A stretch of 64,000 nucleotides of DNA from Myxococcota bacterium (GCA_044344255.1 JBIJDH010000003.1:288001-352000); one strand, 5' to 3'; numbered from the stretch's first letter, positions 26,321 to 36,194 are shown. The notes: generated by a model not told the origin, from the sequence alone. Program-made: numbers and translations.

Positions 26321-27084
26321 CCCCGCCGACCCCCTCGGACGACGATCCGCGCGAGCAGGCCCTCGATCGCCTCCATGACGGCCTCGACCGCCCCCGCCTC
26401 ACCGTCGCCCTCGCGGCCAGCCTCGTGCTCATCCACGCAGGCATCGGCGCGCGCGTGCTCCTGCGGGGGAACGCTGGCGTCTGGGAGGCCTTCTTCGCCG
26501 GGCGGGGCGAGCGGCTGCTGCGGCGGTCGGGGGCGATGTGGTGGCGGGCCGTCGATCGCGGGGAGCTCTGGCGCCTGGTCACGAGCGTCTTCCTCCACGG
26601 CGACGCCCTGCACCTGCTCGTCAACACGAGCGCCCTCTTCGCCCTCGGGCGGCTCTGTGAGGCGGTCTATGGCCCCTCGCGGATGTTGTGGATCTTCCTG
26701 CTCTCCGGCGTGGGCGGGGCCACCCTCACCTGGGTGGGCGGCACCACGCTCACGGTGGGGGCCAGCGGCGGCATCTTCGGCTTGCTGGGCGCCGCCTTCG
26801 TCTTCGGCTGGAAGCAGGGGCGCGCGCTCCCCGACGACACCGCGGCCTTCTTCCGCCGCAGGCTCGTCCCCTGGATCCTCGTCAACCTCGCGATCGGCCT
26901 CCTGCTCCCCTTCATCGACAACCTCGGCCACATCGGCGGCCTCGTGACCGGCTGCCTGCTCGGGATGGTGCTCGACAACCGCGTCACGGAGCGCCCCTCG
27001 CGGCCGATCGGGGTGCTGCTCGCCGGCCTCAGCCTCTCCCTGCTGACCATCGGCCTCTGGGGAGTGAGCACCAAGTGGGTCTGA
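26317..27084 (+). CDS. Rhomboid intramembrane serine protease
   Basis: Motifs WRLVTSVFLH...HLLVN, GASGG and HIGG. Confidence 0.93.
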   Translation: MTPPTPSDDDPREQALDRLHDGLDRPRLTVALAASLVLIHAGIGARVLLRGNAGVWEAFFAGRGERLLRRSGAMWWRAVDRGELWRLVTSVFLHGDALHLLVNTSALFALGRLCEAVYGPSRMLWIFLLSGVGGATLTWVGGTTLTVGASGGIFGLLGAAFVFGWKQGRALPDDTAAFFRRRLVPWILVNLAIGLLLPFIDNLGHIGGLVTGCLLGMVLDNRVTERPSRPIGVLLAGLSLSLLTIGLWGVSTKWV

Positions 27085-27887
27085 AGCCCCTCGACCCGAC
27101 GAGCCCATGGTTGGACCGATCGACCGTCGAGCGCGTGGACCGCCTCCGCCGACAGGGCGACCCCTATGAGCTCGGCCTCGCCGCCGACTGGGGCGCGGGG
27201 CCCACGCGGGTGCAGCTCTCCTACAACCCTCGCCAGCAGCTCCCTTCCACGCGGTCGCAGCTCTTCTCGGCCCTTGGGGCCGCCGGCTTCGATCTGCGCG
27301 CCCTCCGTCTCATCGCCGATCTCCTCCCCCATGCCTCCCCGGTGCTCGGCTTCGAGGACCTCGGTCGGGGCGCCACCCTCTACCTGGAGGAGCTGCAGAG
27401 GGGAGAGGACCACTGGCTCCGCGGGGTGAGGGCGGCCGAGCGAATCGTCGGTGGGGAGCTCCCCGTCTTGCCCGGCGCTCCCTACATCCTCGCCATCGAC
27501 CTCGAGCGGGGGCGGTCCCGCCCGGTGGCCTGGAAGTTCTACTGGATGTTTGACCCTTCCGAGGAAGAGCTCCTCTTCTCCACCGCGACCGCCCTCTTCG
27601 GTCGGTCCCTGCCTGTGAGAGAGCGAGCGATGCTCCAGGGCCCCAGCCCCGCCTCCGCCTGGATGCTGCAGCTCCGCTTCGACGGTGGCGCCCCGCTCTT
27701 GAAGATCTACAAGACCTGGGCCTACTCTCCCGTGCCGACCCCGGGGGTGGAGGCGGAGCTCCGGGCGATGGGCGCGCCGCTGGAGCTCGCGCCGGGTGCG
27801 CCCGCGACCTCGATGGGCATCCGCTTCTTCCCCGATGGCCGCTGCCGTTTCACGGCCTACTGGTGCTTCGAGCGGGCCCTCCCGTAG
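27075..27887 (+). CDS. Hypothetical protein with repeated beta-hairpin-like segments
   Basis: GTG overlaps the rhomboid end (start uncertain). Segments LAIDL..WKFYW, LQLRF..LKIY and MGIRF..FTAYW. Confidence 0.6.
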
Positions 27888-27910
27888 CTCGCTCTCAAGG
27901 TCCCTCGAAA

Positions 27911-28027
27911 GCTAGTGGGCAGGCGGAGGAGTGTGTGGACGTCGGACTTCTGGAGAATGCAGCGGCGAATGGTATTGCCAGCGCCGCTCCCGAAGAGCAC
28001 GTCGTCGGGTGCCACTGCGGCGGGGCC
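27911..28027 (-). pseudogene. hsdM: Fragment of a type I restriction-modification methyltransferase (HsdM)
   Basis: A frame absent from the ORF track reads [39 protein letters not shown]. This matches the HsdM segment RAAVV.PDNVLF.GGAGETIRR.LL...[11 protein letters not shown] as I recall it. Confidence 0.75.
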
Positions 28028-33952: not shown

Positions 33953-34053
33953 GCGGGGCCCTAACCCTGGGCGCGGGGGAGGGCAGGGGAGGGGACGGGC
34001 GGGCCTCCCGGGCCCGCTTGACAGCGGCGCCCGCGGCGCACTATCGGCCCGGC

Positions 34054-35079
34054 ATGAACAATGGCCGCCTGACCGCCCTCGCCTCGGGCGTCGCCCTCGC
34101 CCTGTTGCTGCCCGCGGGGGCGGAGGTGCTGCTCCGACAGACGGTGGGGGGGCCCACCCTCGAGCGCTACACGCTCTATCGGCTCCACGGCGCCGATGGA
34201 TACACCATGATCTCGGCGACGCGAGACCCTGTGCTGCTGCTCGACGAGGCCTCGGCCCTCCTGTCCCCCGACCTGCGTCTCCTCTGGTCACTCCGCCCCT
34301 CGCTCGAGCTCGTCGCGGACAACCTGTCCTTTGGACAGCCCAGCCCCTGGACGGTGCGCACCGGGGCGGATGGCTTCCGCCTGCCGAGCGCCCCCGAGGC
34401 CGAGCTCATCGCCCTCGGCGACTCCTGCACCTTCGGCTGGGGGGTGGGTGACACGGAGGCCTGGCCGAGCGCCCTGTCCCGCCGCCTCGGGCGCTCGGTG
34501 CGGAACCTCGGCGTGCCCGGCTACACCCTCCTCCAGGGCGAGGCCCTGCTCGACACCCTCGCTGTCCCGGCCGACCGCACCTTGATCCTCGCCTTCGGGG
34601 CCAATGACGGCCACAAGGTGCTCCGGGGAGACGCCGCGTGGCTGGCGGAGCGGGCCAGCCCGGCGGGGGGCGTCCGGGCCTGGCTCGCGGGTCTGTACCT
34701 CATCCAGTGGGGCCAGCACGCGCTCTATCCGGCCTATGCCCGGGCGACCGCGCTGGCGGCCCCCGAGCTCGGCCCGCGGGTGTCACCGGCGGAGTTCGGC
34801 GCGGCGCTCGAGCGGCTCAGCCGCCGCGGGAACCCCCTGCTGCTGATCTCGATCTGCGCGCGGGACGAGTATCGCCGCGAGATGGAGGCGGCGGCGGGGC
34901 GCCCACCCCTCGTGTTGGCCGACTCGCTCGGCATCCCCACCCTTGATGGCTGTCACCCCACCGCGTCCGGCCACGCCGCCCTCGCCGCGGCGGTGGACGG
35001 CGCGCTCGCGGGGGCGGGGCGCCCGGCGGGCGGGGGGGCGATCGACGTGAACTCCCCGTCCCCCCAGATGTCGAGGTAG
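34054..35079 (+). CDS. Membrane-anchored SGNH/GDSL hydrolase
   Basis: Motifs GDS, NLGVPGY, GAND and DGCHP. N-terminal TM. Confidence 0.85.
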   Translation: MNNGRLTALASGVALALLLPAGAEVLLRQTVGGPTLERYTLYRLHGADGYTMISATRDPVLLLDEASALLSPDLRLLWSLRPSLELVADNLSFGQPSPWTVRTGADGFRLPSAPEAELIALGDSCTFGWGVGDTEAWPSALSRRLGRSVRNLGVPGYTLLQGEALLDTLAVPADRTLILAFGANDGHKVLRGDAAWLAERASPAGGVRAWLAGLYLIQWGQHALYPAYARATALAAPELGPRVSPAEFGAALERLSRRGNPLLLISICARDEYRREMEAAAGRPPLVLADSLGIPTLDGCHPTASGHAALAAAVDGALAGAGRPAGGGAIDVNSPSPQMSR

Positions 35080-36194
35080 CCCTTCCACACGCCCTCGCAG
35101 GTCTGCGCGCGGCTGCAGGCCCCGCAGGCCGCCGGGTGCCCCTTCATGTCGAAGCGCTTGCGGTCCTGCCAGTTGAAGCGGGAGCGGCTCCCGTCGGGGT
35201 CGATCTGCACGACGGGCGCGGTGGGGAAGTCTGTCCAGGTGTCGGGCACCACCCGGCGCCCGGTGGGCAGGTGGTCGCCGCCGTCGGTGGCGATCGAGGC
35301 GGCGGTGCGGAGGTCGCGGTACTCGCCCATGTGGCGCTCGAGCAGCGCAGGATCGTCCCGTAGGGCCGCCGGCAACACGCAGAGGGGGAAGCCCCCGAAG
35401 GTGAAGGTGCGCTTGAAGTGGAGCTCGGAGAGGAGCACACACTTCACCAGCACCGGCACCACGGCGCTGTAGCGGGCGGTGAGCGCCGCGTCGCCGATCG
35501 CGTATCCCTCGGGGCGGAGGAAGTTGGCGCGGATGTCGTCCACGCCCATCTCTTCGTAGAAGAAGCGCAGCATCCGCGGGAGGTGGAGGTAGTTCCACCC
35601 ATTGATGACGATGTTGATCGACAGGCCGTCGGGCAGCCGGCCCTGGGCGCGGGCCGCAGCGAGGCCCTGGAGCGCGGTCACCTTCTTTGCGAAATTGCCC
35701 GGGACGCGGGTGAGGCGGTCTTCTAGCGCGGCGGTGTGCCCGTGCATCGAGACGGTCAGGCGGGTGAGCCCGGCCTCGAGCAGGCGGGCCCGAAACGCGG
35801 GGAGGCGCAGCTTGGTGGCGTTCGTGGCCAGCGTCACCCGCGAGAAGCCGAGCGAGCGGGCGAGGCCGACCGCCTCGACGATGTGGGGGTAGGTGGTGGG
35901 CTCCCCGCCGAGGAAGCCGACCGACTCATAACCGGCCTCGGCCCAGCGCCGGAGCTCGGCCTGCATCGCCGGCCAGGGCATATACGAGCGGTCTTCGGCC
36001 TTCGGCAGCCCGTCGAGGCAGAAGACGCAGCGGTTGTTACAGGCCTTTCCGATGTTGATCTCGACGTTCTTCCGGCCGTCTCGCACGCCGCTCTCGGGCT
36101 GGGGGTGGAGCTGCCCGACCGCGGCCGCCGGGTTGCCGCGGGCCGCCGCTGCGCCGGGGCGCGGGCCCGGGATCGTCGAGCCGGGCTCGCTCAC
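34953..36194 (-). CDS. Radical SAM protein with C-terminal CxxC-x5-C motif (HxsC-like)
   Basis: GTGA-coupled start. Motifs CNNRCVFC, GGEPT, TNA, FPLC and CGACSRAQTCEGVWKGY. Confidence 0.9.
   Translation of the reverse strand: MSEPGSTIPGPRPGAAAARGNPAAAVGQLHPQPESGVRDGRKNVEINIGKACNNRCVFCLDGLPKAEDRSYMPWPAMQAELRRWAEAGYESVGFLGGEPTTYPHIVEAVGLARSLGFSRVTLATNATKLRLPAFRARLLEAGLTRLTVSMHGHTAALEDRLTRVPGNFAKKVTALQGLAAARAQGRLPDGLSINIVINGWNYLHLPRMLRFFYEEMGVDDIRANFLRPEGYAIGDAALTARYSAVVPVLVKCVLLSELHFKRTFTFGGFPLCVLPAALRDDPALLERHMGEYRDLRTAASIATDGGDHLPTGRRVVPDTWTDFPTAPVVQIDPDGSRSRFNWQDRKRFDMKGHPAACGACSRAQTCEGVWKGYLDIWGDGEFTSIAPPPAGRPAPASAPSTAAARAAWPDAVG

Follow-up and report, generated by a model that had tools for sequence, protein, structure and literature searches.

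We describe here a locus of oxidative and radical enzymes in a 64,000-nt stretch of DNA from a Myxococcota bacterium (GCA_044344255.1 JBIJDH010000003.1:288001-352000; genome G000), the whole of which is referred to as the window. The locus is read as a detached, optional tailoring module that works in trans for the Myxococcota HxsA4-type His-Xaa-Ser system, with the precursor peptide HxsA4 as the substrate, a reading that we consider to have slightly more for it than against it. The gene content, the motifs, the co-occurrence and the physical linkage in relatives were observed directly, and the folds were taken from structure models. The invariant core of the module is a pair formed by an ABBA-barrel gene (barrel A) and the gene of an HxsC-like radical S-adenosylmethionine (SAM) enzyme (rSAM1), and not the WelO5-type halogenase by which the initial annotation had defined the locus; the description of the locus as an orphan without a core enzyme was thus not upheld. 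Neither was the claimed lack of scaffold genes, because both previously unassigned genes show the ABBA prenyltransferase fold in the models and are thereby structural relatives of the enzymes by which the hapalindole scaffold is built, and a fitting precursor is encoded elsewhere in this genome, beyond the limits of the window. The locus is likened to a tailoring cassette of a peptide made by the ribosome and modified after translation (RiPP) attached to an HXS-type system, and it is neither a canonical HXS system nor a hapalindole cluster.

Gene order and conserved core

The open reading frame (ORF) calls confirmed the gene positions and the minus-strand run with gaps of at most 17 bp. The run includes six genes, from 33952 down to 28413, all on the minus strand: a Rieske non-heme iron oxygenase alpha subunit (32951-33952; PF00355), barrel A (32083-32958; 291 aa), its near-obligate partner rSAM1 (31062-32093; PF04055), a WelO5-family 2-oxoglutarate (2OG)/Fe enzyme with an HSE...H facial triad (HxE gene, 30316-31065; PF22814), rSAM2 (29273-30313; PF04055) and a second WelO5-family 2OG/Fe enzyme with HVG...H (HxG gene, 28413-29255; PF22814). 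The genes overlap by 8 bp (Rieske/barrel A), 11 bp (barrel A/rSAM1) and 4 bp (rSAM1/HxE), or are separated by gaps of 2 bp (HxE/rSAM2) and 17 bp (rSAM2/HxG). Three further genes accompany the run: barrel B (27075-27887, plus strand; 270 aa, the start possibly at 27135), a loosely associated SGNH/GDSL hydrolase whose N-terminus carries a hydrophobic anchor (34054-35079, plus strand; PF13472), and rSAM3 (34953-36194, minus strand; PF04055), an HxsC4-like radical SAM enzyme that belongs to the hxs operon of Myxococcota and is displaced here. The domains assigned initially, i.e. two WelO5-family 2OG enzymes, three radical SAM enzymes, a Rieske oxygenase and an SGNH hydrolase, were all recovered with Pfam.

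Locus DNA was also present in lake and freshwater metagenomes, with no RNA data set listed among those containing it, and the names of homologs are those of Myxococcota. Contigs from four other lake or freshwater DNA runs bridge the gene junctions, rSAM2/HxG included, and none of them covers the whole stretch; in view of the bridged junctions the locus is no assembly artefact.

Barrel A was found in 36 genome loci (19, the window included, and 17 from two search sets), some of which are near-duplicates. The rSAM1 gene lies directly downstream of it in 34 of the 36 loci (the automated count gave 32, and L059 and L153 are also adjacent), the exceptions being L060 with two intervening genes and L139 in which the two genes are 8.6 kb apart. 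A WelO5-family gene was present in 16 and a Rieske gene in 15 of the loci, a B12-radical SAM gene in 11 (by automated count, in which the L059 entry is a mis-assigned rSAM1), rSAM2 in eight, barrel B and the SGNH hydrolase in five each, and an aKG-HExxH gene in four. Barrel B homologs adjoin the module in seven other locus records. The recurrence supports the initial proposal of a conserved, previously undescribed oxidative-tailoring unit: the homologs do co-occur across the loci. A conserved small ORF, as a candidate local precursor, was not seen in these loci.

Barrel A occurs also fused to HxsC4-like radical SAM enzymes (P0098, P0108, P0115, P0148), to B12-radical SAM enzymes (P0138, L153), to a PhyH dioxygenase (P0164) and to a PqqD-like domain (P0186; E 8.7e-5, slightly below the cut-off). 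The additional tailoring genes (B12-radical SAM, methyltransferase, PhyH) differ by lineage, which fits with diversification of one product. No barrel A relative was found in viral contigs. In one locus (L195:1547-10810) a barrel A homolog is clustered with a LanM-like enzyme, a JmjC oxygenase, a nitrile-hydratase-like small protein and a Rieske oxygenase, and a stand-alone homolog (L189:7797-8624) lies on a contig of 30% GC, the neighbouring genes having translations that resemble ribosomal proteins of archaea.

Association with the His-Xaa-Ser system

The catalogued families related to the system are HxsA4 (NF038313), HxsC4 (NF038332) and HxsD-like (NF038315). In the genome of the window, an hxsB gene (TIGR03978, 471.9 bits against a cut-off of 370) was found outside the window on contig C77 (222868-224271), directly followed by an hxsA4 gene (222431-222793; 129 bits against a cut-off of 55). 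The HxsD helper was identified indirectly, as the product of C77:224554-225048 is 58% identical to that of a G069 gene passing TIGR03976 (55.7 against 50). The order on the contig is D, D-like, B, A4, PapB-like radical SAM. The HxsA4 precursor has 120 aa and consists of a leader and a core HCS(HGS)n-HGQW with 17 HxS motifs; the core contains only the residues H, G, S, C, Q and W, and the precursor has a hydropathy maximum of 0.36 and no hydrophobic signal peptide. The same genome contains an aKG-HExxH gene on contig C24 (99.8 bits), and orphan radical SAM genes on C7, C26, C31, C54 and C74, for each of which the trees give a starred ortholog that is clustered, in Polyangiaceae loci, with hxsB or barrel A. 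At C54:112129-113286 there is a second, solitary paralog of rSAM3 with 65% identity.

In Polyangiaceae-type loci the barrel A-rSAM1 pair adjoins aKG-HExxH, HxsD, HxsD-like and HxsB genes above their cut-offs. In G069, hxsD, hxsD-like, hxsB, hxsA4, a PapB-like radical SAM, an HxsC4-like radical SAM and an rSAM3 ortholog adjoin barrel A, rSAM1 and the Rieske gene. In G235, hxsD and hxsA4 are 3 kb from barrel A, and the distance is 16 kb for HxsB in G065 and 27 kb for HxsA4/HxsB in G220.

Also the radical SAM enzymes themselves are related to this system. In rSAM1, seven cysteines (C51, C55, C58, C263, C297, C303, C310), four of them C-terminal, are invariant in 32 sequences, and the scores for HxsC4 (55.6 bits) and HxsC (48.2 bits) stay below the cut-offs. 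The score of rSAM3 for HxsC4 is 126.3 bits against a cut-off of 500, and its clade (support 100, starred) includes the radical SAM of the G069 hxsD-hxsB-hxsA4 operon. The best NCBIfam match of rSAM2 is PapB with 113 bits, below the cut-off of 340; it has cysteines solely at positions 13, 17, 20, 86 and 244, thus none for an auxiliary cluster, and is placed as sister of the PapB-like radical SAM from the hxsB-hxsA4 operon with a tree support of 84, not starred. Against HxsC (TIGR03977) the three enzymes of the window, to which among the radical SAMs of the genome the scan was confined, reached 45.5-48.2 bits and not the cut-off of 267.9. As members of the His-Xaa-Ser system of Myxococcota, the radical SAMs point to a substrate that is a peptide and not a lipid or small molecule; among the substrates suggested initially, a peptide encoded elsewhere is hence favoured and the other two are not.

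Co-occurrence was studied in a single set of 300 genomes sampled evenly from the phylum Myxococcota, with HxsA4 matches counted at E<=1e-8. Barrel A was present in 22 genomes, HxsB in 111 and both in 21, so that HxsB accompanied barrel A in 21/22 genomes as compared with 90/278 of the others (Fisher 3.5e-9). For HxsA4 matches the corresponding figures were 21/22 and 83/278. The size-matched background of genomes of >=5.5 Mb had 23/37 (P 4e-4). Furthermore, HxsB was above the cut-off in all 13 further genomes reached via barrel A loci, four of which recur in other sets. Orthologs of rSAM3 were present in 20 of the 300 genomes, 18 of these with HxsB, and in 11 of the 20 a match for HxsB or HxsA4 is no more than 5 kb away from them.

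The anti-phage system HXS is formed by HxsD-HxsB-HxsC-HxsA (Li et al. 2026, PMC13128918). According to the available text of that paper, HxsB, HxsC and HxsD of E. coli process HxsA with a +8 Da change on an SHRSS motif, and the mature protein blocks the entry of phage DNA. The system of our genome is similar in having an HxsB above the cut-off, HxsD-type genes, an HxS-repeat substrate and radical SAMs that are HxsC-like and have a second cluster of cysteines. It differs in being split over many contigs, with no scanned radical SAM reaching the HxsC or HxsC4 cut-off, in having a short leader-core precursor without the hydrophobic signal peptide, and in the added barrels, WelO5-family enzymes and Rieske oxygenase; instead of the canonical order D-B-C-A with a signal-peptide and peptidoglycan-binding effector, the order given above was found. 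The accessible main text of PMC13128918 makes no mention of Myxococc-, prenyl- or halogen- terms, HxsA4 or HxsC4. Nor was any paper on HxsA4/HxsC4 systems or on the barrel family found in full-text literature searches, to which subscription papers and the supplements of PMC13128918 and PMC13489965 may add such loci or halogenase clusters. Radical SAMs repeatedly modify a leader peptide with tandem short repeats also in TvgA/TvgB and TigB/TigE, and the tvg cluster has an Fe/2OG oxidase of its own; in the portions of these sources at hand (PMC9062424, PMC10878394), the repeat and the radical SAM families are different, the clusters are compact, and there is no prenyltransferase fold or halogenase.

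Folds and motifs of the encoded enzymes

Neither barrel had a Pfam or NCBIfam match, and both profiles found nothing significant in a sequence search of the PDB. They are no members of PF11468, PF11991 or PF19156, the families of their language-model neighbours, which appeared on merely 11-41% of the members. In the structure models both are PRENYLTRANSFERASE-fold barrels (ABBA prenyltransferase fold) with the ten antiparallel strands of a prenyltransferase barrel. The model of barrel A was built from 31 sequences (predicted local distance difference test 94.8, predicted template modelling score 0.92), and Foldseek matched it to FamD1, AmbP1, KgpF and the His-specific LimF (E 4e-7 to 5e-6). 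Prenyltransferases filled the top 19 rows of a wide structural search, with Z from 13.1 down to 8.4 as against 6.6 in the row below, and were headed by CdpNPT (Z 13.1, root-mean-square deviation 3.8, 242 aligned residues). The same 19 entries were on top also for barrel B (12 sequences, predicted local distance difference test 90.6), with Z from 19.3 to 16.1 and 11.4 in the next row; its fold is DMATS/cyanobactin-F-like, with CymD as the best match (Z 19.3, root-mean-square deviation 3.6, 265 aligned) and TleC in Foldseek (E 1.7e-9). When profiles were compared, the probability was 0.3% for barrel A against barrel B. The N-terminal halves of tandem fusions reached 2% against barrel B, a value at which their homology to it is not shown.

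The barrel A family includes 431 representatives at E<=0.001 (50% clustering). Conserved over 178 members on its strands are K73, E83, Y85, Y87, S127, Y146, Y174, K221, Y228, D265 and K284, polar and aromatic residues which together look like an active site. Among residues that may serve in diphosphate binding, the family keeps K73, N-x-Y (172-174), K221, Y228 and K284-x-G-x-Y288, and barrel B keeps K154, Y156, R201, K210 and Y212; those used by NphB are, in the text available, K119, K169, R228, K284, N173, Y175 and Y216 (PMC12018323). The ten-stranded barrel is shared with the ABBA prenyltransferases of the cyanobactin F family and the DMATS type (PagF, KgpF, LimF, DciF, CymD, TleC, FunA), of which the F family modifies peptide side chains (PMC13290415, as far as accessible). 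Unlike these, the barrels are without a match at sequence level, form new families at 6-19% identity and are paired or fused with radical SAMs.

The scores for PF22814 (WelO5, cut-off 27) were 172.9 bits for the HxG gene and 87.8 bits for the HxE gene. In the former, HVG aligned residue for residue with the HVG of WelO5 (PDB 5j4r, E 2e-32), its glycine corresponding to G166 in WelO5 numbering, and YHRV aligned as well. The product of 28413-29255 thus has HxG/A in place of HxD/E and the distal His, as in WelO5-type halogenases, and is predicted from its motifs to be an aliphatic halogenase acting on a free-standing substrate. The 2His-1Gly/Ala motif is that of halogenases according to the accessible part of PMC13489965. 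The paralog has HSE at the place of HVG, conserved in 13/13 rows of its starred clade, and is a predicted hydroxylase or oxidase. The closest orthologs of the halogenase (79, 67 and 56% identity) lie on contigs other than that of the module in G020, G001 and G011, and the gene is an optional add-on and not a defining member. Its starred clade (97/94) includes HxG genes adjoining barrel A in L050, L051 and L140, so the pairing with the module recurs, and WelO5-type HxG genes do occur together with these radical SAMs. Altogether 27 WelO5-family matches were found in 20 genomes of the 300-genome sample; ten of the 27, spread over seven genomes, have HxG, and six of these seven genomes have HxsB and five have barrel A. 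A separate clade of stand-alone WelO5-family proteins with HHD (L205-L215), probably hydroxylases of different function, is present in 11 genomes of the phylum, none of which has HxsB.

The Rieske protein has the CxH-x-CxxH motif of the Rieske centre and the NxxDxxHxxxxH motif of the mononuclear iron, and its nearest solved relatives are a phthalate dioxygenase-like protein and SxtT. The hydropathy of the SGNH hydrolase peaks at 1.96 at residue 9, and in G001 and G020 the gene lies upstream of the Rieske gene and runs in the same direction. A Rieske oxygenase is present also in hapalindole-type clusters. With the hapalindole/welwitindolinone clusters (WelO5/AmbO5, AmbP1/AmbP3/FamD1), in which, according to the available text of PMC4849077, WelO5 chlorinates C-13 of hapalindoles, the locus further shares the HxG WelO5-family halogenase and the ABBA barrels with FamD1 and AmbP1 among their top Foldseek matches. 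It differs in that the halogenase is only about one third identical to WelO5, in the three radical SAMs, and in the link to a ribosomal peptide; and no isonitrile synthase or indole-terpene cyclase was matched among 20 proteins around the locus (Pfam, NCBIfam) or among the scanned neighbours in related loci. The Pfam scan covered these 20 proteins, and the rest of the window was judged from the gene list, which contains no nonribosomal peptide synthetase, polyketide synthase or cyclase. The thallusin/ebo pathway, UbiA-type in the portion of the source available, was considered and found unrelated.

The only gap that looked non-coding (27887-28413) was examined for a local precursor, and a DUF559 remnant ORF was found there instead, between barrel B and the halogenase (27895-28341). 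With its 43-bp inverted repeats (28090-28132/28299-28341, 86% complementary) it resembles a small mobile or REP-type (repetitive extragenic palindromic) element. Rfam gave no match in the window from 20000 to 42000. An EcsC-family gene (36191-36976, minus strand) overlaps the start of rSAM3 by 4 bp, and PADLOC has a match for it in PDC-S29 (E 4e-62), a model of candidate defence genes; it was not seen adjoining the module in relatives. Viperin-like defence was rejected, the PADLOC pVip matches being weak (<=56 bits) and generic to radical SAMs. A gene for an SMI1/KNR4 (SUKH) immunity-type protein (37978-38781, plus strand) is divergent from a metallophosphoesterase gene, and this phosphoesterase is near the module also in G011. 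Two tandem, near-identical cysteine-rich lipoprotein-like genes follow at 39543-40506 (minus strand), of which the one scanned had no Pfam match. On the other side, two membrane proteins without Pfam or NCBIfam match (20958-22703 and 24719-26320, plus strand) lie on either side of an aminotransferase gene and a DapD-like gene, and their sequences give an impression of likeness to membrane glycosyltransferases.

Proposed product, alternatives and implications

In the proposed scheme, the module would act in trans on the ribosomal precursor HxsA4, made with HxsD, the HxsD-like protein, HxsB and the PapB-like radical SAM. Judging from their families, the HxsB/HxsC-like radical SAMs would modify the HxS repeats. 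Barrels A and B would transfer a prenyl group to the His imidazoles or to the invariant C-terminal Trp, a step with about an even chance within the scheme, and rSAM1 would be the dedicated partner of barrel A. Prenylation is suggested by analogy with cyanobactin F enzymes, which prenylate peptide side chains in the available text of PMC13290415. More tentatively, the HxG enzyme may chlorinate, the HxE enzyme hydroxylate and the Rieske enzyme oxidise the prenyl group: since the HxsA4 core has no aliphatic side chains, the aliphatic C-H bonds would most plausibly come from such a group, comparable to the terpenoid part of hapalindoles on which WelO5 acts. The product would be a poly-His-Gly-Ser peptide located at the cell envelope, lipidated, oxidised and in part chlorinated, with a possible role in phage defence by analogy with HXS. 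In its boldest form, which we consider speculative and improbable, a new ABBA-barrel branch with a dedicated radical SAM would prenylate the poly-(His-Gly-Ser) peptide and WelO5-family enzymes would chlorinate and hydroxylate its isoprenoid, so that an HXS-like anti-phage system would have an effector that is anchored in the membrane and varies between strains.

Several observations weigh against HxsA4 as the substrate. The hxs core lies within 10 kb in merely three of the 36 loci, HxsB is common in the family of the host anyway (17/21), and the P values of the co-occurrence (3.5e-9 and 4e-4) are overstated because kin genomes are not independent. The genome G010 (=G242), 90% complete, has the full module and no HxsB, HxsA4, aKG-HExxH or PapB-like ortholog was found in it, an absence that may be real. 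Genomes that have the module and genomes that lack it do not differ in the HxsA4 core, and nothing in the precursor thus marks it as the substrate. The halogenase, hydroxylase, Rieske, rSAM2 and barrel B genes are limited to a minority of the loci; the halogenase is frequently located elsewhere than the module, and the closest relative, L044, has no HxG gene in its cluster. Gly is present at position 172 of the window's barrel A, where 96% of the family have Asn, and the fold shared with prenyltransferases in the models shows no function. Finally, distant barrel A-rSAM1 pairs of Proteobacteria (L166, L183, L190) adjoin giant secreted proteins with 0-2 HxS motifs, SapC and HlyD/M50 export genes; a second barrel-like gene frequently lies alongside, as does an O-methyltransferase. 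In L166 (NZ_CP049813.1, 3172-16816), on a Pontibrevibacter plasmid without HxsB, the pair follows a 3926-aa autotransporter-like gene, and in L183 and L190 it lies between RTX-repeat or other giant proteins, SapC, HlyD, M50 peptidase and SecA-like genes. This context weakens an exclusive link to Hxs and still favours a protein or peptide substrate.

The proteobacterial pairs would be explained if the locus were a general protein-modifying cassette that co-occurs with Hxs and has another ribosomal product, e.g. an exported surface protein, as its substrate, an explanation that we find unlikely. It would agree also with the barrel A homolog in the lanthipeptide/NHLP-type cluster L195, with the Hxs core missing from the G010 searches and with the membrane anchor of the SGNH hydrolase, but the nested co-occurrence and the physical linkage with hxs genes in Myxococcota speak for HxsA4, and no LEPRxLL-motif protein was present among the gene calls of the window's genome. 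The barrels could also be non-catalytic peptide-binding adaptors that bring the substrate to rSAM1 and the oxygenases, with the latter acting directly on His, Ser, Gln or Trp carbons. This would replace the prenylation step only and would leave the link to Hxs intact. It is suggested by the fusions of barrel A to tailoring enzymes of several kinds and by the low identity to solved prenyltransferases (6-15%). However, the near-invariant Lys, Tyr, Asp and Glu on the barrel strands of the 178 sequences resemble an active site, and we regard pure adaptors as very improbable.

Quite unlikely, too, is an amended form of the initial proposal, a small-molecule pathway complete in itself: a free aromatic compound (indole, phenol or imidazole) would be prenylated by the barrels, and the meroterpenoid would be decorated in hapalindole style by the oxygenases and the halogenase. 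Aromatic prenyltransferases and WelO5 do build hapalindoles (PMC4849077, in the text available), small molecules are the substrates of characterised WelO5 enzymes, and the best fold matches of barrel B are small-molecule indole prenyltransferases. Furthermore, the hxs cluster of G235 includes a polyprenyl synthase and a UbiA-family gene at a distance of 1-3 kb from barrel A (L139:11792-13465), and large genes like those of polyketide or nonribosomal peptide synthetases are found elsewhere in the genome. Against this stand the radical SAMs of Hxs operons as the nearest relatives of all three radical SAMs, the fusions of barrel A to a PqqD-like domain and to HxsC4-like radical SAMs, and the lack of a conserved acceptor-supply gene in approximately 160 neighbour proteins scanned against Pfam.

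With HxsA4 as the substrate of the module, a testable substrate is named for a set of orphan enzymes, and a fold is assigned to two unannotated protein families, one of them with the 431 representatives given above. The barrel-radical SAM pair beside giant secreted proteins in Proteobacteria is a hint of unrecognised protein modification, possibly of surface proteins and in a cultured host. If the proposed reading is true, prenylation and radical halogenation would be added to His-Xaa-Ser chemistry, and a peptide pathway would be scattered over at least six contigs, invisible to cluster-based genome mining. WelO5-type halogenases would then extend from cyanobacterial alkaloids to ribosomal peptides and would be useful biocatalysts.

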